From Corallococcus sp. (GTDB lineage: Bacteria; Bacillota; Clostridia; Christensenellales; CAG-314): a stretch of 64,000 nucleotides of DNA. The first letter of the stretch is position 1, and each line of letters starts with the position of its first letter. The notes under the pieces were generated by a model. The model made no database searches and was not told the DNA's origin. It worked only from the letters and a program-made list of their open reading frames with translations. This document shows positions 6,574-18,786 of the stretch, piece after piece. A program made the translations under genes and the position numbers. The stretch lies in contig JAMPEJ010000004.1 in the NCBI GenBank assembly GCA_023665205.1, forward strand, positions 93,112 to 157,111, written 5' to 3'.

Positions 6574-7680
6574 TTAGACTGCCGCCACAAGCAGTGTAAC
6601 GTCCGTCAACGTTACTTCGCCGAAAGATTCGATCTCAATTTGTATTGTTGTGCAGTTCTGCGGCGTTTCCAACACGATCGGTTCGCCAAGCGTGCCGGCA
6701 ACTTCGCCCGTGACGACTACGTCGTCCACAATACTGCCGTAGATAACCTTGACGTTGGCGTTGCCGTTACCCTCTACAAGCAAGTTGTACGTCAGCCCTA
6801 AACAATCTAAATACACGTTTTGCACCAACGTACCGTCAAGTGTCAAATTGCCGTTATTTACAAGTGCAGTGCCATCGGTAACGCTCCAAGCGTCGTTTAC
6901 CGTTACGTCGTAGTCAAAGTTTCCGTTAGCAATCAGGTTTTTGACAGGAATTTCCAAGTCCGCCACCCAACCGCCGTTGGCAAGCGTATTGCAATTTTCT
7001 TTGTCGGCGATTTCGCCGTCAAAAGGCATATAAGTAAAGTATTTTACAACGGCGCAATCCGTTTCGAAGTCTGCTTCGCCGCACCATTGATACGGGAACC
7101 AACACCCGATATTGACGTACATTTCGTTGGTAGGCACGTTGGTATACTGCGTAACCACAAGTACGCCGTCAATGTAGTACTCTACGCGCGCATCGTTGCC
7201 CGTGTGCCAATCTATGCGGTAGGTGTGGAAATTGCCGTCGGCAAGGTTGTACCCGACGTTTTTGTACTCGCTGGTATAACTCTGCTCAGTAACCCAAGTG
7301 GTAAACAACGGCGTCGCCAAGTTGCCTATATTTTTACTGCCGTTGTCCATGCCCAACAATTTGCCGTTTACAACCGCAGTCCCGTGAATTTCTATATCTA
7401 TTTCGTAGTTGTGGACACGTCCGTCCGCGCCGACAAAATTGTTGTACAGCCACATCGACGTGCAAATGCCGTTGAATGAAGGTATCTTCATGGACACTTC
7501 GAAACTGCCCGGTCCGTACGTCTGTGTGGACTGTACTTTGGCGCCCGTACGCTGTCCGCCGCTTACAAGAGAATCTTGCGCGCCGACGTCAATGCCTTGT
7601 TTATCGCCCGCATACCAATCTCCGTTGACGATGAGTACAAGATTTCCGTCTTCGTCAAAAGCGACGTTGTCTGCAAGCAC
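6574..7680 (-). CDS. Glycoside hydrolase family 16 domain plus a C-terminal CBM-like beta-sandwich; the ORF as called starts at GTG 7680, but GH16 homology continues upstream in frame to 7818 with no start codon (see findings)
   Basis: The catalytic motif E-I-D-I-E is present (HNYEIDIEIHG). It is paralogous to the GH16 at 17130..18659. There is no signal peptide. Forty-six in-frame upstream codons (FNSAIDRNEWFTKDQIWSGAF...) align with the N-terminal strand of the paralog. Confidence 0.8.
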   Translation of the reverse strand: MLADNVAFDEDGNLVLIVNGDWYAGDKQGIDVGAQDSLVSGGQRTGAKVQSTQTYGPGSFEVSMKIPSFNGICTSMWLYNNFVGADGRVHNYEIDIEIHGTAVVNGKLLGMDNGSKNIGNLATPLFTTWVTEQSYTSEYKNVGYNLADGNFHTYRIDWHTGNDARVEYYIDGVLVVTQYTNVPTNEMYVNIGCWFPYQWCGEADFETDCAVVKYFTYMPFDGEIADKENCNTLANGGWVADLEIPVKNLIANGNFDYDVTVNDAWSVTDGTALVNNGNLTLDGTLVQNVYLDCLGLTYNLLVEGNGNANVKVIYGSIVDDVVVTGEVAGTLGEPIVLETPQNCTTIQIEIESFGEVTLTDVTLLVAAV

Positions 7681-7813
7681 GCCGCCGTGCGTTTGCAGGT
7701 AAAGTGCAAACTCCTCCGCGTCAAGGGGGAGGCGGTTGCCCGCCTCGTCTTCCTTAAAAGCGCCGGACCAAATCTGGTCTTTGGTAAACCATTCGTTCCT
7801 ATCTATGGCTGAG

Positions 7814-7827
7814 TTAAAGACCCTCCT
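7814..7827 (-). other. Candidate prfB-like +1 ribosomal frameshift motif: AGGAGG-GU-CUU-UAA(-C)
   Basis: Minus strand 7828->7813 reads CAG GAG GGU CUU UAA C. A Shine-Dalgarno-like AGGAGG lies 2-3 nt upstream of CUU, followed by a stop and then C. The +1 frame reads UUU AAC and continues as the GH16 domain. Confidence 0.35.
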
Positions 7828-10800
7828 GAGGCTCGGTAATAGTTACCAATTGCCCCGGCAGATAGCCGTTATTAGTTACGTTTATTGCGAAAGAGTAAGT
7901 CTGACCGACTTGCAATTTTTCTTTCAGAGCATCCGACAACTTTATGGTATAGGTGTTGTTTTCGCCCTTTTTACAGCCGTACCATTCGCTGTTGATACCG
8001 CTACGGATATAAATAAAGTTAATTGCATGGCTGGCGTCCATTGTAAGAGTAAAAGTCCACTCGCCATCCAAAGCCATGGTTGTAGCCACGTTCGTCAACA
8101 CCACGTAACGCTTGTAAACGGGACCGTAGTTTTCAACGTAAACCCAGTCGGTTTCCGTACCCAACGTTGCGCTTGCAGTCAGGAAATCTTCGCTGCTTGC
8201 AGCAAAGCAATTTTCGGCGGTTGCATAGTTGGTATAAATAACGTTTAATGCACCGGTTGTTACGTTATCTTCTTTAACTACGGTTGTTACATAGCACACG
8301 ACGTTGCGCACGGTGCCTTCTCCCTTGTTGTACGTCACTACGCCTGCCGTCAACCAGTTTGCAGTTATTGCGCAAGTAGAGTCGACGACTACGTTTTCGA
8401 TCAAACCTTCGTTTACCGTTGCGATAAAGGCAGTTTGGTTTTTGGATTTAACGGTTGCGTTCTTAAGAGTGAAGTTTTTGACTTCTCCCGTTGCTCCAAC
8501 GTATCCGAACATAGACAATCCGAATCCGTCGCCATTGAAACTGCTTCCTTCAATCTTAAAGTATTTGATAGTATATCCGTCGCCGTCAAATTTACCGGTA
8601 AACGGAACTCCCTTTTGTTCCAAACCGTCCGCGTAAGGATTATCTACGTTGCAAGTTGTGTCGTCTCCGCCTTGAACAGGTTGTTTGCCCACGGTAGTTA
8701 TAACGGCCTCTTCGAAATCAAGGTCCTTAGTAAGTCTGTAGTAACCGGCACGATTTGCTTGCATAAGCGCCCAAGCCTGTGCCGCAGTTTCGTCGCCTTG
8801 CGCCAGTTCGTACCAAATATCGTAAGTCTGTTTTTCGGATACGGTCGCATAGTCGTCCGTATAGGTGTAAGTTATCTCGTGTTGACCGGCTTCGGCCTCG
8901 CTTGCGGAAATTTTGGAAGTATCCGCATTAACGGTTGTGCCGCTTGCCATTACTAGAGCGTAGTCGGCTGCCGCAAGCAGATCCAAAGCCGTCGTCTTGG
9001 AGTAAGCAAGTTGCGGTATGCCGTTGTCGGTGGGCAACGCCGCTTTGGGCGTAACTTTCAATGCCGTTGCATAGTCAACAACTGTGACCGCTATTGTCGC
9101 GGTTTTGCCTTCGTAAGTAACGGTAATGTCCGTGCTGCCGGCCGTTGAGAAATCGTAACCGCCGCTAATCATTGCGTCGGTAATTGCAATGCCCGTTGTG
9201 GGATCGCCCGACGACATAGTTGCCGTGATTGTGGCGCCGGCAAGATCGGCTAAAGCGGAAACCGCAGAATTAAGTTTGTAGGTATCTTTTGCCGGAGTAC
9301 CTACGATTGCAATACCGGTTACGGTAACGGCCGCGTCTTTCACCGTGATACCGAACGTGCATTCGCTTCCGCCGTAGGAAACTTTGACGTTATAAGCCCC
9401 GGCAGTTGTCAAATCGTAGGTCGTGCCGTCCAACATAGCCGACGTAACGTCGATAATGCCGCTTGTGCCGTTGTTGTAAGAAACGTTGATTTTTGCGCCG
9501 GTCAAATCCAATACGGTATCTGTACCGATTGTGTAAGTTGCTTTTGCGGGTTGCGCGCTCATTGCAATACCTGTAACGGCTTTTGCAATAAGAGTTACTT
9601 TAAGCGTTACGTAATCGTTGTCGCCGGTGCCGTAGAACGCCTTGACTGTCTGCACTGCGCCGACGCTACCGTTAGCGTCGTAGCCGTCCAAGCGCGTGGG
9701 ATGGATTGTCGACGACGTGCCGTCGCTCATATTTTTGCGAACGTTGATCGTATCAAGATCGATATTCAAACCTTCGGTAATACTGACGGGAAGTTCCGCA
9801 ACAACGTTATTATCGCCGTCCAATAAGTCGTAACCCGTGACATACGCCGCAGTAATATCGATGGTAAACGTTGCGGTCGTACCGCTGCCGCTAACCGCCA
9901 TGTTGATAGATTCGCCGCCAACCAACGTAGTTGAAGCAATATTTGCAATTTTAACGTACAGCTTGCCTGCTCTCCACTCGTAGGAAAGTTGCGACGCATA
10001 CGGTCCGAAGAAAGTAACTTCTACGTTAGCGGGATCGCCTTCTTGAATGATAACGTCCAAAGCTAGTTCGTCGTTTCCGATAGCAAGCACGTGATCCGTA
10101 GAGTTGATACGCACGTAACTGGGGGTTACGTACAACGTGCCGATACCGTCGAAGTATCTCCAACCGCCGCCGAGTTTTGCGGTATGATCGCCGTTGTCGG
10201 CGAAGCCGTTTTTGACGGTTTCGTCAACTACGCCGCTGCCCTTATAAGCAAGTTCGATTTGCGGATTAGCAATCAGACTGACGACGTTTTTGATCGTACC
10301 GAAGTTGTATCCTACAAACGCCGCAGTGTGGTGGTAAACAGCGCGCGGATTACAACTTTCCTCCAAACTGACGTTTTCGATCGTGCCGGAATTGACGCCA
10401 ACCAACGTTGCAGCGTAACCGCCGCCGGAAGTAGAAACGTTGCGCAAATTGAGATTACATATTTTCGCATCCTCACCTAACCATCCGAACATGGCACGGC
10501 CGTAACCTTCGGCTTTCCAATTGGTAGCCTCTTTGACGCGATAATTCATTATAGTGTGTCCCAAACCGTCCAACGTACCCAAGAAAGCAACGCCGTTTTG
10601 GTTCTTGACCGGATCCATGGGATTACCTTCTTCGTCTTTAGGAGCACCGTCGCCGTCACCGGGCGCACCGTTTACAGGATCGGGCGTATAGATATTTTCC
10701 GTATCGACGATATGAGATACGGCAATAGGAGCCGCGCCGACAGGATCCTGCCAAGCGTTTTCAAAATCGAGGTCGCGGGTAAGCACGTAGTACTTACCTT

Positions 10801-11713
10801 GGGAATTGGCGACGTCCGCCGCCATGGCCTTGAATTCGTCTGGCGAGGAAATAGGAGTTCCTACAACTACCAAAACAAGTTGCGTACCGTCGCCGTCCGT
10901 AACGGAAAGTAGATTACGTCCTATCGTCAAAGCGGACGTGCTTACGCTGGTCGTATCTTCGTTGAGCGTAATTTCAAGTACGTCGCCGCGCATGTTTGCA
11001 ACTTTGGTAGCCAAACTGTTTGCTACAATGTAGTCGACGGAGTTTTGATCGTTTACGATGATTTCCACGCCGTTGACGTCTATGTCTGCATCTGTGCGTT
11101 CGCGCAGTTCAAACGTTACGGTAAATTGCTTTGTAACGTCGTTTTCCGTGTAGGAAACGGTAACGTCAAAGTCGCCTTCCGTCATAGTGTAGTCGTCTAC
11201 GTCAAGATCGTTTATCGTAAGAGATTTGGAAGAACCGTTGTCGTACTTAGCCAAAAACGCCGCGCCGGTGAAATCAACTTCCGTTACCAGTTCGTCCAAA
11301 AAGTATACGGATTTGGTCGGTTCTTGCGTCATAGTAAGTTGCGTAAGCACCTTATCCGTGCTGCTTGCAGACTTGGTATACGTCACCTCGTTGGAGGGTT
11401 TGCTTGCCGAATACTTAGCCGTATCGGTCGACTTGGCTGTTACCGTCACTTTGTACGTGCCTTCAGCAGTACTGCTTGGAAATACGTAACTCGTAGTAGT
11501 TACGTTTATCGCCGCGCCGTTGTTGACCTTTACGTCGTAACTGTCGGCATGCTCTACCTTTTTCCAACTTACCGTCCCCGTTTCGCTGTCCAGCGTTATG
11601 ACCGGAGCAGTCAGTTGAGTAGTTTCCGGATCGTCGTTACACGCAGCGAACACCAAGCAAAGGCACGCCACAAGCAACAACGATACTATTGCTACCAGTT
11701 TTTTGAGTTTCAT
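7814..11713 (-). CDS. Giant surface lipoprotein (1299 aa) with Ig-like (Big_3-type) repeats and two GLUG-motif modules
   Basis: Lipobox signal MKLKKLVAIVSLLLVACLCLVFAAC, with GGAGG 8 nt upstream of the ATG. Tandem repeats resemble Big_3 (TGIAMSAQPAKATYTIGTDTVLDLTGAKINVSYNNGT...VKVSYGG). GLUG-like strings include ATLVGVNSGTIENV, AAFVGYNFGTIKNV and GVVTYNKGEGTVRNV. Confidence 0.75.
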   Translation of the reverse strand: MKLKKLVAIVSLLLVACLCLVFAACNDDPETTQLTAPVITLDSETGTVSWKKVEHADSYDVKVNNGAAINVTTTSYVFPSSTAEGTYKVTVTAKSTDTAKYSASKPSNEVTYTKSASSTDKVLTQLTMTQEPTKSVYFLDELVTEVDFTGAAFLAKYDNGSSKSLTINDLDVDDYTMTEGDFDVTVSYTENDVTKQFTVTFELRERTDADIDVNGVEIIVNDQNSVDYIVANSLATKVANMRGDVLEITLNEDTTSVSTSALTIGRNLLSVTDGDGTQLVLVVVGTPISSPDEFKAMAADVANSQGKYYVLTRDLDFENAWQDPVGAAPIAVSHIVDTENIYTPDPVNGAPGDGDGAPKDEEGNPMDPVKNQNGVAFLGTLDGLGHTIMNYRVKEATNWKAEGYGRAMFGWLGEDAKICNLNLRNVSTSGGGYAATLVGVNSGTIENVSLEESCNPRAVYHHTAAFVGYNFGTIKNVVSLIANPQIELAYKGSGVVDETVKNGFADNGDHTAKLGGGWRYFDGIGTLYVTPSYVRINSTDHVLAIGNDELALDVIIQEGDPANVEVTFFGPYASQLSYEWRAGKLYVKIANIASTTLVGGESINMAVSGSGTTATFTIDITAAYVTGYDLLDGDNNVVAELPVSITEGLNIDLDTINVRKNMSDGTSSTIHPTRLDGYDANGSVGAVQTVKAFYGTGDNDYVTLKVTLIAKAVTGIAMSAQPAKATYTIGTDTVLDLTGAKINVSYNNGTSGIIDVTSAMLDGTTYDLTTAGAYNVKVSYGGSECTFGITVKDAAVTVTGIAIVGTPAKDTYKLNSAVSALADLAGATITATMSSGDPTTGIAITDAMISGGYDFSTAGSTDITVTYEGKTATIAVTVVDYATALKVTPKAALPTDNGIPQLAYSKTTALDLLAAADYALVMASGTTVNADTSKISASEAEAGQHEITYTYTDDYATVSEKQTYDIWYELAQGDETAAQAWALMQANRAGYYRLTKDLDFEEAVITTVGKQPVQGGDDTTCNVDNPYADGLEQKGVPFTGKFDGDGYTIKYFKIEGSSFNGDGFGLSMFGYVGATGEVKNFTLKNATVKSKNQTAFIATVNEGLIENVVVDSTCAITANWLTAGVVTYNKGEGTVRNVVCYVTTVVKEDNVTTGALNVIYTNYATAENCFAASSEDFLTASATLGTETDWVYVENYGPVYKRYVVLTNVATTMALDGEWTFTLTMDASHAINFIYIRSGINSEWYGCKKGENNTYTIKLSDALKEKLQVGQTYSFAINVTNNGYLPGQLVTITEPQEGL

Positions 11714-12900: not shown

Positions 12901-15288
12901 TTACGCTATGGTTACGATCACGCGGAATTTTTCTCCGCTTTCCGTTTGAATAAGCACGCTTATTGGTTCGCTGCCGTACTTGACAAACTGACTTCCTGCA
13001 ATCACGACCGTATCGCCGCTGCAAGTAAACTCTGCCTCTTTACCGAAAATTTTGACGCCCGATACGGTCAAACCGCTTTGAGGCAAAGAGAGTTGTACGT
13101 CGGTTAGATTTTGTCTGTCCAGTTGCACCGGATCCAACAAAGTATCGCCTACTACGGTTATCTGTTTTTGTACTTTTTCTCCGTCGGCAAGCGTTGCGAC
13201 AAGGTTAAACGTACCGCTTTGTACGTTTGGAGCGATAGAAATAACGTCGCCCTTTATGGACACGCCTTGCGTAGCACCTGTAATAGAATAAGTGACTTTT
13301 TGGTTGGCGGTAGCAGGAAGCACCGCACAATTTACGCGATAATGGCCGTCGGCGTACATAACGTCTTCGGTATCTACGAACGCCGTTTGCTGCAAATTGA
13401 CCTTGGCGTACACCCACACCGTATAGTCTGCGTAAATCTCGCCGCAGGTTATGCGTACCGTTACGTATTCGCCGGCTTGTGCGTTACGTACGCTCAAAAG
13501 GCCTTCCGCAGTTACCGTTGCGCCGTTGCCTTGCACTATTTCGAAAGTCAAACCGTTTGCAGCCGCGCTTGAGGGGTTTGTCGTAACGTCCAATTGCAAA
13601 GAATCGCCGCGCGTAAGATGAGTTTCGGTATTGTTTACAACGACCGATTTTAGAGGATACTCTAAGTCCAAACTCGGCAACACCGGAAGCGAACCTGCGC
13701 TATGTTGCCAATTGCTCCAAGACGAATAATCCATCTTGGCAAGATTTGTAGAGTCGCTTGCAAGAGCGCAATTTGTTGCGCTGCCGCTACCGGAAAAAGC
13801 GTACGTTTTATTTTGAACGGCATAGCAATCGGTAATTATCCCCATGTTGTCGCCGCAGAAACTGCCGACGTAACTTTCGCCGGAGGCCTTGCCCAAACTG
13901 TAACAGTTTTTAACGGTACCTTCGTTTTTGCCTACGAATCCGCCCAAAATTCGGCAGCCGTCGGCAGTAACGTCCACGTCTGCCCAACAGTCGTACACTT
14001 TGCCCATATTGTATCCGACCATTCCTCCGCTAAACGACTTGACGTTATTAAAACCTTTGACGCCAAGATTTTTGACTATGCCGCTTGCCGAAACGCACCC
14101 GAACAGTCCGGAGTTGAACGCAAAATTATCGCTGCGCGTAATACTCAATCCGCTGATAACGTGTCCGTTACCGTCAAATTCGCCCGCAAAGGCCCAGTCG
14201 GTTGCAGTCCCGTCTGTTCTGTCGTAATACACGCCGATCGGCTTCCAGCGGTTGCCGGAATCGTAACCTTTACCGCCCACGGCAAGATATTTTGTCAGAT
14301 CCAAGTCGCAAGCCAAAACGTAAAAACCGCGCAAATTTTCCTGACTGTCGTTGATAGCGGCAAGTTCTTCCGCACTTGTAACGTATTTTGCGATTTTTAC
14401 TTGCACCGCAACTGCGTTTTTGGCAGTGACGATACGAAACATATTTATACCCATGCCCAGTCCGCTTGCGTATCTGGGAGTCAAAGTCAGCGTATTAGTA
14501 GCGGAATCGTAAGCGTAATCGGTATGAGCGCTAAGCCTGTTGTGTCCGCGTGTAACACCCAAGATCCCCTCCGCTTCCGCATCGGCGTTAGTCCCGAAAT
14601 CCAGCGTAAAAGATATTCCGGTTCCTACGCCCAGTTCGGCAATAGCCTCGTCCTTTTCGGCAGTGACGTAATTTCCTACTGCAGCTACGAAATTTTTTTC
14701 CGCAACGGCTCCGTGAGAGGAAACCACCACGGTAAACGGAGTACCGTCCGTTACCGCCTCGGTAAAGGTAACTTTGCCTGTGACCGAGTTGACTTTTATA
14801 CCTACGTAATCATCTTTGAGAGTGTACGAGATAGAATACGCGGGAGACGCTACGGCTTCCGCAGTATCGCCGCTTATCAGATAATCGGAAAGGTTGGTTA
14901 TTTCCAGTTCGGGCGCTTCCACTTTTGCGACGACGGTGCATACGGTCGTATCGGTGCACTTTCCGCCGCTTTTTGCACCCAAAAGCACCTGAGTGCCGTT
15001 TGCCACCGTGTCTGCAACGGAAAAAGTGCCGTTATCCGACACGCGGATTCCGTCAGGCGCTTTGCCTACGATAAAATAGGACGCTTTGCCGTTGGCAGTG
15101 ACGCGGATTCCGTCCGCAATTTCGTATACGTCGGCGTCAAAGCGCACAGCCTCCGTATCTGCCGACAAATCTGCGCCTTCGTTGTAGTCGGAAGGAGTAT
15201 CGGTCGCGTCGTTACAAGCAACCGCTGCGATAAGCGAGCAGCACAAAACCAAACACAATATTAAAACGAGTGCAATTTTTTTGCGCAT
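12901..15288 (-). CDS. Surface lipoprotein (about 796 aa) with a GLUG-motif module and Ig-like domains
   Basis: The ORF track extends to 15495. The lipoprotein signal MRKKIALVLILCLVLCCSLIAAVAC begins at ATG 15288, which overlaps the upstream permease stop as ATGA. GLUG strings include FSGGMVGYNMGKVYDC, ILGGFVGKNEGTVKNCY and YVGSFCGDNMGIITDCY. Confidence 0.75.
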   Translation of the reverse strand: MRKKIALVLILCLVLCCSLIAAVACNDATDTPSDYNEGADLSADTEAVRFDADVYEIADGIRVTANGKASYFIVGKAPDGIRVSDNGTFSVADTVANGTQVLLGAKSGGKCTDTTVCTVVAKVEAPELEITNLSDYLISGDTAEAVASPAYSISYTLKDDYVGIKVNSVTGKVTFTEAVTDGTPFTVVVSSHGAVAEKNFVAAVGNYVTAEKDEAIAELGVGTGISFTLDFGTNADAEAEGILGVTRGHNRLSAHTDYAYDSATNTLTLTPRYASGLGMGINMFRIVTAKNAVAVQVKIAKYVTSAEELAAINDSQENLRGFYVLACDLDLTKYLAVGGKGYDSGNRWKPIGVYYDRTDGTATDWAFAGEFDGNGHVISGLSITRSDNFAFNSGLFGCVSASGIVKNLGVKGFNNVKSFSGGMVGYNMGKVYDCWADVDVTADGCRILGGFVGKNEGTVKNCYSLGKASGESYVGSFCGDNMGIITDCYAVQNKTYAFSGSGSATNCALASDSTNLAKMDYSSWSNWQHSAGSLPVLPSLDLEYPLKSVVVNNTETHLTRGDSLQLDVTTNPSSAAANGLTFEIVQGNGATVTAEGLLSVRNAQAGEYVTVRITCGEIYADYTVWVYAKVNLQQTAFVDTEDVMYADGHYRVNCAVLPATANQKVTYSITGATQGVSIKGDVISIAPNVQSGTFNLVATLADGEKVQKQITVVGDTLLDPVQLDRQNLTDVQLSLPQSGLTVSGVKIFGKEAEFTCSGDTVVIAGSQFVKYGSEPISVLIQTESGEKFRVIVTIA

Positions 15289-16169
15289 CAACCTTTCAAA
15301 CCTCCGGCGACGGTATTTTCTATAATGGTCTTTTGGAAGCAAGCGAACAAAATAAGAATGGGAATTACGGCAACCATCACCGCGGCAAACTGCCAAGGAT
15401 AATTGCCCTTTGCCTCCGTTTGCAACGCCTGCAATCCTACTGCCAAAGTTTTGGTGCCGGTCATGTACAAATACGGTGTGGAGTAGTCGTTCCACAAGGC
15501 GATCGCCTGCAAAATAGACACAGCTATGATAGGACCTTTTGCAAGAGGCAGCATAACGCGGAACAAGATTTGAAACCTGCCCGCGCCGTCAATCTGCGCG
15601 GCCTCCGCATAACTCCAAGAAATGGTTTCGAAAGAACTGTGCAGCAATATAAAGTTGAAGCCGAAGCACCCCGAATACAGGAACAGTACGCCGAAGATGG
15701 AATCGTCTATTCCCAAAGTTTGCAGCATGCGGTAAGTTGCTGGCATAGTACCGATTATGGGAACAACCATGGTAAAGATTGCGGCGCCCAAGATAAAGCG
15801 TCTGCCCGGAAAACGGTACTTTGATACGCAATATGCGGAAATTGCCGAAAGCCCGACGTTTATTACCGTACCCAAAACCGTAAGCAGCACGCTCATAAGC
15901 AACATGCTTAGCATGGATTGTCCTGCGATTTCAAAGGAAAGCACGTCGCTGTAATTTTGGAAACGCCAAATACGCGGAAATCCGAAATGGTTGGGTGAAA
16001 TATAGTCCTCGTTTGCTTTGACACTGTTCAATAGCATCCATACGAACGGCGCCAACAGCGAGATCGCATACGCAAGCATAATGACGAACATAATCCACTT
16101 GACGACGTTGAAGGATGAAAATTTCTTGGTTTGTATCGGGAGATATTTTTTCAGTTGTCTTTTTGTCAC
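15288..16169 (-). CDS. Carbohydrate ABC transporter permease (CUT1, MalG/LplC-like)
   Basis: 293 aa and multi-pass. It has an EAA-loop-like SYAEAAQIDGAGRFQILFRVMLPL. Confidence 0.8.
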   Translation of the reverse strand: MTKRQLKKYLPIQTKKFSSFNVVKWIMFVIMLAYAISLLAPFVWMLLNSVKANEDYISPNHFGFPRIWRFQNYSDVLSFEIAGQSMLSMLLMSVLLTVLGTVINVGLSAISAYCVSKYRFPGRRFILGAAIFTMVVPIIGTMPATYRMLQTLGIDDSIFGVLFLYSGCFGFNFILLHSSFETISWSYAEAAQIDGAGRFQILFRVMLPLAKGPIIAVSILQAIALWNDYSTPYLYMTGTKTLAVGLQALQTEAKGNYPWQFAAVMVAVIPILILFACFQKTIIENTVAGGLKG

Positions 16170-17129: not shown

Positions 17130-18659
17130 TTACACCATCCTCAAATCCACGTCGTCCAATTGCAAAAAGCCGCCGTATTCCGTGGAAAACGTAAATTTCA
17201 ATTTATAGCAATTGGCGGGAGCGGTAAGTTTTTGAGTATATTTATGCCATTGCTCCGCGCTGTCTATATCGATCGTTACCTGACTTATCCGTTCGGAAAC
17301 GTTGAAATACTCAACGACAAGTTGACCTTTCCCCATTGCCGCGACAGATAAATCGAACTGAAATCCGCCGTACACGCTGTCGATTTCCTGCGAAAAACGC
17401 GCGATATCCGTAAGGCGCACGCCGCAAGATCCCAAATTGCCAAGTTGTTTGTCTACGGTAACATAAAGTGAAGCGTCGTCGGAATCTTCTATTTCGTTTA
17501 TCATACGGTTGACTTCAGCTTTCACCTGCGCTTCGGTATATTCCGGATGAGCTGCGGAAACCTGTTCGGTAAACTGCACGCGCAAAGCTGCCGTTTCGGC
17601 GTTTGTAAGCCACCTGGTGCCGCTAACCCAACCGCTTGCCGCGTTTGGATTTTTAAGTACGTATTCAAAGTCCCCGTTGGCAACCTTATTTACGTTTTCC
17701 GTAGAAACGGGATAGGAGGGATATTCGTCCGAAGTAGCAACCTGAGTAGACGAAATCAAAGGAGTAAACTTGGTACAAGGTTGATCCTTAAAAGGCACGT
17801 ACTTGACCCAGTCTACGTACATACAGTCGCTCTCAAACAACGCGTCGCCGACAAAACCGGTGTTGTTGGGAAACCATACGCCCAACCACAAACGGGAAGT
17901 ATACGACGGAACGAAGGTTCCGGAAATGGAACTTACGGCGGTAACTTTGCCGTCGATATAGTACACCACACGCTTCGGGTTGGTATACCAATCGAAGCCG
18001 AAGGTGTGCCACTCGCCGTCGTTCAACGCGTAATCTTTGTCGCCGAATACTTCGGTCAAGTCGGCGCTTGTGGATTCGTTTTCGTTGACTGTGATATAGT
18101 TGGTATTAAGTACCTTTTGGAAGGAAATGCCCGTGGGCGTACCTTTGCCGCCGGGAAGTTCGATGTCTATTTCGTGGTTGCCCTGAGTTTCGTTATCGAA
18201 TGCGTAAGTCCAAAAAGCGGTACACGCGCCCTGACGCGGCAACACCTTCATGCGGACTTGGTATCTGCCGGGACCCGTAACGAATTTGCTGATAAGCGCT
18301 CCGCCCGTAAGCGAACCGTCCTTGACGGTGCCTACGCCCGCAACGTCTCCCGCGGTGTAATACTCGCCGTTGCCGCTTATTACCAAAACTCCGTCGTCGG
18401 TGTAATTTACGTTTTCGGGGATAACGCCGCCGTTTTCGCCTGCACCCCACGCTTGTTTGCCGATATACCAGTTATCCGGATCGACACCGTTTGTGAAGTC
18501 GTCGAAAAAGGCGTTATCTATGTCCATTTCTACGCCGCTGAGCAAATATGCTTCACCGCCTATCTCATGCATGTCTCCGTCGCCGTTGCAGCCTACAAGC
18601 AGCAACGAAAGCGACAATATTACCACAAGTATGACGGCTGTCTTTTTCAATTTAGTCAA
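17130..18659 (-). CDS. GH16 lipoprotein (beta-glucanase family) with a C-terminal CBM-like region
   Basis: The catalytic motif NHEIDIELPG is present. The ORF track starts at 18725. I prefer TTG 18659, preceded by GGAGGA, which gives MTKLKKTAVILVVILSLSLLLVGC (lipobox). The exact start is uncertain. Confidence 0.75.
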   Translation of the reverse strand: MTKLKKTAVILVVILSLSLLLVGCNGDGDMHEIGGEAYLLSGVEMDIDNAFFDDFTNGVDPDNWYIGKQAWGAGENGGVIPENVNYTDDGVLVISGNGEYYTAGDVAGVGTVKDGSLTGGALISKFVTGPGRYQVRMKVLPRQGACTAFWTYAFDNETQGNHEIDIELPGGKGTPTGISFQKVLNTNYITVNENESTSADLTEVFGDKDYALNDGEWHTFGFDWYTNPKRVVYYIDGKVTAVSSISGTFVPSYTSRLWLGVWFPNNTGFVGDALFESDCMYVDWVKYVPFKDQPCTKFTPLISSTQVATSDEYPSYPVSTENVNKVANGDFEYVLKNPNAASGWVSGTRWLTNAETAALRVQFTEQVSAAHPEYTEAQVKAEVNRMINEIEDSDDASLYVTVDKQLGNLGSCGVRLTDIARFSQEIDSVYGGFQFDLSVAAMGKGQLVVEYFNVSERISQVTIDIDSAEQWHKYTQKLTAPANCYKLKFTFSTEYGGFLQLDDVDLRMV

Positions 18660-18786
18660 AATACGGCATCCTCCGATACGGTTTTTCCACATTATAGCAT
18701 ACGGAAATGTTGATTTCAATACCATTTTTTAATTTTGTTAAAAAATTTTGAATATTTTTTATGCCCAGTGTTAAAATAGGAAATTA

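Follow-up and report, generated by a model that had tools for sequence, protein, structure and literature searches.

The DNA analysed here, referred to as the window, is a stretch of 64,000 nucleotides from Corallococcus sp., a gut bacterium of the Clostridia (contig JAMPEJ010000004.1 of assembly GCA_023665205.1, positions 93,112 to 157,111 of the forward strand). On its minus strand it encodes a large putative surface lipoprotein scaffold, termed open reading frame 1 (ORF1), which is directly followed in the +1 frame by ORF2, a glycoside hydrolase family 16 (GH16) domain. The element in question is the junction of the two ORFs, which resembles the site of programmed +1 ribosomal frameshifting in prfB, the gene for release factor 2 (RF2). 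At this junction the following features are found:

11639..11713, minus strand: lipoprotein-type signal peptide of ORF1, MKLKKLVAIVSLLLVACLCLVFAAC, read by eye
7814..11713, minus strand: ORF1, putative surface lipoprotein scaffold of 1299 codons, including the TAA stop codon 7816-7814
7843..7845, minus strand: TAA bounding the +1 frame upstream
7822..7827, minus strand: internal Shine-Dalgarno (SD)-like AGGAGG, the AGGAG core of which ends 3 nt before CTT
7813..7819, minus strand: candidate shift heptamer CTT TAA C (P-site Leu codon CUU, A-site stop codon, 3' C)
6574..7815, minus strand: ORF2, NSAIDRNEWF...LLVAAV, 413 codons plus stop, in the +1 frame
7678..7680, minus strand: GTG, first canonical start codon in the GH16 frame, at a position that is not conserved

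The 3' end of ORF1 reads ...ACC GAG CCT CAG GAG GGT CTT TAA C TCA GCC ATA GAT..., the encoded protein ends with ...VTITEPQEGL*, and the string AGGAGG-GT-CTT-TAA-C (7827->7813, minus strand) is located exactly at the ORF junction. The TAA at 7845-7843 closes the +1 frame, which is open from 7842 onward and reads LLPSLRRVF followed by NSAIDRNEWFTKDQIWS..., so that any shift is confined to the last 9 codons of ORF1. The first codon after a shift would be AAC (7815-7813), the stop codon of ORF2 is at 6576-6574, and the first ATG, GTG or TTG in the +1 frame is the GTG at 7680, 45 codons past this AAC. The original prediction, which was made from the letters of the window, gave the coordinates and strings of the junction, of the +1 frame with its bounding TAA and its GTG, and of a 46-residue peptide string exactly, and the prfB-like layout it described is confirmed, with the SD-like core 3 nt 5' of CTT, then the stop codon and then C. 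The prfB consensus consists of CTT_TGA_C and an upstream SD sequence (PMC3711429). Among RF2-type shift sites, CUU_U far exceeds all others in efficiency, and it was tested next to a UAG codon; a C after the stop codon weakens termination (PMC5009743). An SD:anti-SD duplex at short spacing is described to destabilise P-site pairing (Devaraj and Fredrick 2010, as cited in PMC3711429). In the window, CUU_U is present at 7819-7816. The motif GGAGNNNCTTTARC occurs once in the 64-kb window compared to 0.06 expected occurrences, and 6 of 100 shuffles contained at least one match. The motif alone is thus mildly improbable, and its significance derives from its exact position at the junction and from its conservation in orthologues.

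Orthologous junctions were collected with a chimeric query composed of the ORF1 C-terminus and the GH16 domain, which returned ORF1 orthologues of 1249-1288 aa, all ending with ...E(G/S)L, and GH16 relatives, and no protein spanning the ORF1 and GH16 halves. The contigs were fetched, and one-genome-per-species and JGI collections were scanned for orthologous loci. The resulting set comprises 13 distinct orthologous sequences from independent metagenome-assembled genomes (MAGs) and metagenomes (NCBI, ENA, JGI, Logan) with a locus GC content of 41-59%, sharing the synteny of ROK regulator, ORF1, GH16, metallophosphoesterase (most loci) and phosphoglucomutase. In 13/13 sequences the GH16 ORF adjoins ORF1 with zero gap and lies in the +1 frame. 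ORF1 ends with CTT and a stop codon in 10/13, with TAA, TAG and TGA all being used, and a C comes next in nine of these ten; counted over the lineages, C after the stop codon is found in 12/13. An SD-like element (RGGAG/AGGGGG) is kept in 9/13 lineages, and in each case 3 nt separate its core from the P-site codon. The junctions are given below as SD-like element with spacer, last ORF1 codon, stop codon and next nucleotide:

Window: AGGAGG-GT, CTT, TAA, C
L001/L010/L030: AAGGAGG-GT, CTT, TAA, C
L002/L003: AAGGAG-AGT, CTT, TAG, C
L005: AAGGAG-AGT, CTT, TAG, C
L004: AGGAG-AGT, CTT, TAG, C
L109: AGGAG-AGT, CTT, TGA, C
L115: AGGGGG-TAT, CTT, TGA, C
L006-L009/L013 (a Christensenella MAG): no SD-like element, CTT, TAA, C
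L014: no SD-like element, CTT, TGA, G
L111: no SD-like element, CTT, TAG, C
L112: no SD-like element, CTT, TAG, C
L110: AAGGAGG-GT, GCC, TAG, C
L114: AGGAGG-GC, GCC, TAG, C
L113 (ORF1 of 448 aa): none adjoining the stop codon, GCA, TGA, T

The programmed +1 shift put forward in the original prediction is supported by the recurrence of the same two-frame junction in 13 orthologous sequences with CTT in ten of them, and in the orthologue alignment proposed there the two-frame arrangement was found to be conserved, while neither a single fused ORF nor an orthologue bearing a signal peptide was found. A scan for CTT-stop junctions preceded by ≥150 open codons and followed by ≥120 open codons in the +1 frame matched only these junctions among ~109 fetched loci. 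The JGI metagenome scan yielded 79 loci with one further orthologue (L030), the others being unrelated proteins with GLUG-like modules, and the CTT-stop/+1-ORF scan on these unrelated loci, serving as negative control, gave 0 matches. A comparison of the junction with Rfam gave no match. In L115, a lineage with 57% GC, AGGGGG TAT CTT TGA C (L115:5910-5925) closes an ORF1 of 1056 aa. These 16 nt presumably match the E. coli prfB cassette.

That the frame break is an error of assembly or sequencing in the GGG or TTT runs, the true gene being one continuous ORF, was also considered in the original prediction. Such short homopolymers are present at the site, but the break lies at the same codon in independent NCBI, ENA, JGI and Logan assemblies with differing flanks and stop codons, and the orthologous ORF1 protein P0003 is found on >55 contigs with the same terminal residue on each; the probability of such an error is regarded as negligible.

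The GH16 ORF was analysed for signs of selection. Pairwise comparisons revealed a proportion of synonymous differences (pS) of 0.6-0.84, which is saturated, and a proportion of non-synonymous differences (pN) of 0.03-0.41. The ratio of non-synonymous to synonymous rates (dN/dS) is 0.06-0.36 where dS is estimable, and the close pair L002/L004 shows a dS of 0.13 and a dN/dS of 0.23. W9, W16 and the EIDIE motif, along with many further residues, are invariant in the orthologue alignment. The 17 codons after the junction, which are located upstream of any possible canonical start, differ mainly at synonymous positions, e.g., with 8 synonymous versus 4-5 non-synonymous differences, a bias which indicates that translation of this stretch in the +1 frame sets in at the junction. 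As judged from these alignments, purifying selection acts on the GH16 frame starting with its first codon. An alternative of the original prediction is a recent 1-nt indel that split a fusion gene. Such an indel, which would leave the GH16 part as a decaying pseudogene or as a product of low-level unprogrammed slippage, is highly improbable on these data, as the split is common to 13 lineages with saturated synonymous sites, pN is well below pS, EIDIE is intact and internal stop codons are absent. Moreover, no intact fused orthologue was found, and CTT, the 3' C and the SD-like element have persisted through changes of the stop codon and the flanks. What speaks for an ancestral fusion is the architecture of the L006-type relatives (P0005-P0007), in which the +1 ORF has 733-737 codons and carries an extra GLUG-like module in frame with the same GH16; such a fusion is thus natural, and the GH16 is apparently normally the C-terminal end of a larger scaffold.

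Selection is also apparent on the signal. In these genes, 21-44% of the Leu codons and 1-2.6% of codons overall are CTT, so that the chance that all ten lineages use CTT if Leu is required is ~1e-5 (a hand product of the per-lineage fractions, which shared ancestry weakens, although synonymous sites are saturated). The SD-like element is spelled with GAG after AAG or CAG, usually minority codons; GAG makes up 12-30% of Glu codons in 6/7 lineages scored and 49% in L114. The product of the per-lineage chance probabilities for the SD-like element is 2.5e-9 over seven lineages, and by this codon-usage argument the element is under selection at the nucleotide level. In the anchored junction alignment the information content is highest in the heptamer and in positions -8..-4. 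In most lineages the upstream end of the open +1 frame lies 7-11 codons before the junction, by which the frame change is pinned to the last few codons of ORF1.

If ORF1 and the GH16 ORF were two separate genes, GH16 would be translated from a non-canonical start or by termination-reinitiation driven by AGGAGG, and the resulting enzyme would act in the cytoplasm on oligosaccharides taken up by the cell. In line with this, the GH16 frame is directly preceded by an SD-like element, intracellular glycan processing does occur, given the ABC importer, the GH94-like phosphorylase and the phosphoglucomutase encoded in the locus, and possible starts are seen in single lineages, namely a GTG straight after the SD-like element in L110 and a TTG in the L006 family, five codons before the junction, which a gene caller has taken as the start. 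However, no ATG, GTG, TTG, Ile codon or other near-cognate start is conserved at the orthologue junctions, and the first canonical starts in the orthologous GH16 frames are scattered from codon +29 to +91. AGGAG is missing in four lineages, and elsewhere no canonical start is found at normal SD spacing; the SD-like element lies 0 nt before the GTG in L110 and 15 nt before ATA in the window. Translation from GTG 7680 would remove the conserved first strands. A separate gene also leaves CTT in 10/13 sequences, the C after the stop codon and the constant zero-gap +1 offset unexplained, while the conserved protein sequence starts exactly at the junction, and the C-terminal beta-sandwich of ORF2 and the lipoprotein paralogue encoded nearby suggest an extracellular role. 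A profile search revealed ~34 close GH16 clusters (P0005-P0007, P0014-P0045), none of which has a signal peptide or an in-frame giant fusion and which start at scattered internal positions picked by gene callers. When 1.84 billion representatives were searched exhaustively with a profile, no giant scaffold fusion was present among the best 150 matches; the six larger matches that were read either contain several GH16 domains or belong to other GH16 subfamilies and bear a signal peptide, with the canonical first strand FFDDF..G.D..KW. Taken together, two separate genes are an unlikely explanation.

The frame might instead be restored in the RNA, through slippage during transcription or through editing, transcriptional realignment being a known route to trans-frame products in bacteria (PMC5009743). 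The sole homopolymer at the site is T3 (G3 in some lineages), and the conserved P-site CUU, stop codon, 3' C and SD-like element at 3 nt are ribosomal signals, which leaves an RNA-level correction very improbable. Productive slippage of RNA polymerase needs runs of about 7-9 nt or more, and transcriptional slippage was rejected, as the homopolymer runs comprise just 3 nt. An alternative genetic code or stop-codon readthrough was rejected as well, since ORF1 and ORF2 do not share a frame.

We consider it very probable that a prfB-type programmed +1 ribosomal frameshift at this junction yields two products, the 1299-aa scaffold and a 1712-aa scaffold-GH16 isoform. According to this model, ORF1 and the GH16 ORF would constitute one recoded gene. 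The ribosome would reach CUU in the P site and UAA in the A site, where termination would be slow owing to the 3' C, and AGGAG located 3 nt upstream would pair with the anti-SD sequence of the 16S rRNA of the translating ribosome, straining P-site pairing. The peptidyl-tRNA-Leu would then slip from CUU to UUU and decoding would resume with AAC UCA GCC.... Termination would result in the surface scaffold, and the shift in a protein with the junction ...TEPQEGL-NSAIDRNEW... that carries the GH16 beta-glycanase and the C-terminal beta-sandwich and would be exported via the lipoprotein signal of ORF1. The tryptic peptide spanning this junction would be long, ...LQVGQTYSFAINVTNNGYLPGQLVTITEPQEGLNSAIDR, and the Glu-C version would be GLNSAIDRNE. 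As GH16 has neither a start nor a signal of its own, it would on this model be made only by frameshifting, and the efficiency of the shift would set the ratio of enzyme to scaffold. By analogy with phage structural proteins, its likely role is to set a ratio of enzyme-bearing to enzyme-free scaffold that is either fixed or varies with the growth state. Since UAA, UAG and UGA are interchangeable in the clade, an RF2 autoregulatory loop is not expected. The distribution of the junction indicates that the frameshift is ancient and clade-wide, extending beyond this one genome.

Several observations weigh against a programmed frameshift of the prfB type. The shift is deduced entirely from the comparison of sequences, and the L006 family has the upstream TTG described above. 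The stop codon of the window, UAA, is read by both RF1 and RF2, so that termination may compete more than at the UGA of prfB. The lineages L006/L013, L014, L111 and L112 are devoid of any SD-like element, and in L110 and L114 (GCC-TAG-C) and in L113 (GCA-TGA-T) an Ala codon replaces CTT. A simple +1 re-pairing from the Ala codons, e.g., from GCC to CCU, would be poor. For these Ala variants a mechanism as in yeast Ty3 is therefore conceivable. The Ty3 +1 shift on GCG_AGU_U is a eukaryotic example in which a P-site Ala codon is placed next to a slowly decoded A-site codon and no tRNA slippage takes place. As a lead, Ty3 is a possible analogue for GCC-TAG-C of L110 and L114 and for GCA-TGA-T of L113.

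In L110 (L110:6003-6009) and L114 (L114:653-659), the sequence AGGAGG-G(T/C)-GCC-TAG-C has retained the SD-like element, the stop codon and the 3' C. In a rough neighbour-joining tree, L110 and L114 do not group as sisters. The junction of P0021 is probably GCC-TAG-C as well, as read from the +1-frame peptide MPSLTV alone. In L113 (L113:5916-5948), ORF1 has 448 aa and ends with GCA GCA TGA T, a second TGA following directly. Seven codons before its stop codon, AAGGAG-TAT-CTT-CAA is found, which has the prfB spacing and no stop codon, and the +1 frame opens exactly there.

Within the subfamily devoid of the SD-like element, 36 nt are identical between L006:7981-8016 and L014:7286-7321 (GGTAACGGGCGAACAATCCGTTGCTTACTGCCTTT), spanning -31 to +5 around CTT, with flanks of ~65-70% identity and a pS of 0.69 for GH16; this suggests a candidate nucleotide-level element. 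A hairpin ending 5-6 nt 5' of CTT can be formed in L006/L014, L111 and L112:

L111:5945-5961: GCCGGG-ACG-CCCGGC
L006:7981-8005: hairpin site
L112, ~20 nt 5' of 5934: hairpin site

In shuffling controls the hairpin of L111 reached a z-score of -3.1 and the others are weak. Upstream hairpins by the E site were reported to stimulate the +1 shift at CUUUGA in a 70S system, reaching ~60% of the SD effect (PMC6321510). With these weak statistics, an upstream hairpin is a lead for a possible stimulator in the lineages devoid of the SD-like element.

A broader reading, which we put forward tentatively and with some doubt, is that in a clade of gut Clostridia/Christensenellales-like bacteria the GH16 is made only by a shift after a scaffold gene of ~1000-1750 codons. 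The clade would then represent a natural mutagenesis series of the prfB signal, with any stop codon, a hairpin in place of the SD sequence or an Ala codon in the P site, and the shift would act as a setter of stoichiometry.

ORF2 was assigned to GH16 and has the following features:

7075..7557, minus strand: match to Pfam Glyco_hydro_16 (PF00722), beta-jelly-roll core, 55.7 bits with a cut-off of 22
7390..7404, minus strand: catalytic E-I-D-I-E (GH16 ExDxE) with E138, D140 and E142
6577..6950, minus strand: C-terminal all-beta domain after GH16, AlphaFold strands 320-419 with a predicted local distance difference test score (pLDDT) >90, matching no Pfam family

E138, D140 and E142 are invariant in the orthologues and across 24 sequences. 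The AlphaFold2 model of the +1 ORF of the window has a pLDDT of 84.8 and shows a beta-jelly-roll. In Foldseek the best matches are Bacillus 1,3-1,4-beta-glucanases (E 5.6e-12; template modelling score, TM(target), 0.76), and the sequence similarity to lichenases is weak and far below equivalog cut-offs. The C-terminal beta domain is conserved in the alignment of the orthologues and may bind carbohydrate. Residues 1-8, encoded before the junction, have a pLDDT <50, residues 11-20 a mean of 86, and the first strands comprise residues 18-26. Disordered residues before and confident strands after the junction indicate that the GH16 fold starts at the junction, which agrees with the original prediction that the fold begins at the stop codon of the upstream gene. 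That prediction had also aligned the N-terminal strand with the paralogous GH16 of the locus (17130..18725). The match of NEWFTKDQIW with DNWYIGKQAW is upheld by the W..Q.W spacing, by the orthologue alignment and by the AlphaFold model, whereas pairwise BLASTP of ORF2 against the paralogue aligned the two from HGGV onward only and not across the junction, which is due to an insertion of ~25 aa in the window sequence; a BLASTP of the fused junction against the paralogue was not used as evidence. In an ungapped alignment by eye of ...QEGL|NSAIDRNEWFTKDQIW (window 7813-7830) with FFDDFTNGVDPDNWYIGKQAW of the paralogue (18400-18480), the Leu decoded from CUU coincides with the Phe that is conserved in the first strand ('DDF') of GH16. 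This Phe codon may be the origin of the TTT in the slippery CTT_T.

ORF1 is composed of FN3-like and Big_3 Ig-like repeats and two 'FxGxFDGxGYxI' GLUG-like modules. It has no match to the Pfam GLUG model (PF07581) even at E up to 10, the Pfam matches being Big_3 and weakly fn3_6, while the neighbouring 864-aa protein does match the GLUG model (27.1 bits). For ORF1 the term GLUG thus denotes a resemblance, the membership being unconfirmed by Pfam. The ORF1 N-terminus reads MKLKK-hydrophobic-VFAAC and that of the orthologues ...ALVAC, which is lipobox-like by eye. The paralogous GH16 and the 864-aa protein both carry lipoprotein-type signals by eye, and ORF2 itself has no signal peptide. Of the lipoprotein and GLUG labels given originally, the lipoprotein character accordingly holds by eye for ORF1, the paralogue and the 864-aa protein, and the GLUG label for ORF1 was not confirmed. 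The signal of ORF1 is the sole export signal available to the GH16 domain. The ORF1 orthologues comprise 981-1745 aa, in addition to the shorter relative of 448 aa in L113. Lengths from 448 to 1745 aa with the junction kept indicate that the scaffold upstream of the shift site is highly variable in size. The longest, of 1745 aa, is encoded at L109:813-6050 and shows weak DUF2846 and GH85_C-like matches.

The site shares with prfB the internal SD-like element, the 3-nt spacer, the P-site CUU, the A-site stop codon and the 3' C, and in both cases the functional remainder is encoded in the +1 frame and has no start of its own. In contrast to prfB, in which the site follows codon 25 and the zero-frame product is a throw-away peptide, it is located here after ~1000-1750 codons and the zero-frame product is full-length and functional-looking. 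Furthermore, UAA, UAG and UGA are interchangeable and the UGA/RF2 specificity of prfB is absent, a catalytic domain is appended to a surface lipoprotein, and some lineages are devoid of the SD-like element or of CUU. At the level of sequence, all defining features of a prfB-type site are present except for the UGA/RF2 specificity. To our knowledge, no programmed +1 ribosomal frameshift in bacterial chromosomal genes other than that of prfB is widely accepted. A literature search revealed no description of this case, nor of CUU_UAA/UAG in a glycoside hydrolase.

Other recoded genes show partial similarities. In Saccharolobus solfataricus, the full-length active form of the alpha-L-fucosidase fucA1 needs a programmed frameshift between two ORFs. 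The fucA1 system is archaeal, uses a -1 shift on a slippery heptamer and joins the halves of one catalytic protein, whereas here the enzyme is appended to a scaffold. The tsh gene of the Listeria phages PSA/A118/A500 (CCC_UGA) and the Ig-like extensions of capsid and tail proteins likewise use a 'shifty stop' +1 site at the end of a structural gene, which results in short and C-terminally extended forms in a presumably set ratio (PMC5009743). The tsh gene differs in being a phage gene with CCC as shift codon, no SD stimulator described and an Ig-like decoration rather than an enzyme as extension. The dnaX gene (tau/gamma) is a cellular bacterial gene with two isoforms in fixed ratio formed by a shift that is stimulated by an internal SD sequence (PMC3711429). 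Unlike the site described here, it shifts by -1 on A_AAA_AAG with a downstream hairpin, and the shift truncates rather than extends the protein.

The junction is part of a conserved glycan-utilisation locus (window 1597-22940), which encodes a BspA-like LRR_5 protein, a phosphoglucomutase, a purple-acid-phosphatase-like metallophosphoesterase, a ROK regulator, a GLUG lipoprotein, two ABC permeases, the second, lipoprotein GH16, a solute-binding protein and a GH94-like phosphorylase. Some of the orthologous loci additionally encode NagA and NagB. The gene content suggests a role in beta-glucan utilisation. The listed starts of the ORFs 12901-15495 and 17130-18725 are too far upstream; their lipoprotein signals begin with MRKKIALVLIL... 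(~15288; ORF 12901-15495) and with ...LTKLKKTAVILVV... (ORF 17130-18725).

What would be new is a prfB-type programmed +1 frameshift in a cellular context that is not autoregulatory. If this is true, the RF2 signal would have been recruited or reinvented to append a catalytic domain to a surface lipoprotein, with two isoforms per gene, and neither UGA nor RF2 autoregulation would be intrinsic to the mechanism. Gene callers cut all of these GH16 genes short by choosing arbitrary starts inside them and annotate them as cytoplasmic, by which the annotation of carbohydrate-active enzymes and polysaccharide utilisation loci in these gut MAGs is systematically wrong at this locus. The natural variants of the junction, with or without the SD-like element, with a hairpin, with CUU or GCC and with three stop codons, would represent a ready panel for models of the stimulation of +1 frameshifting.

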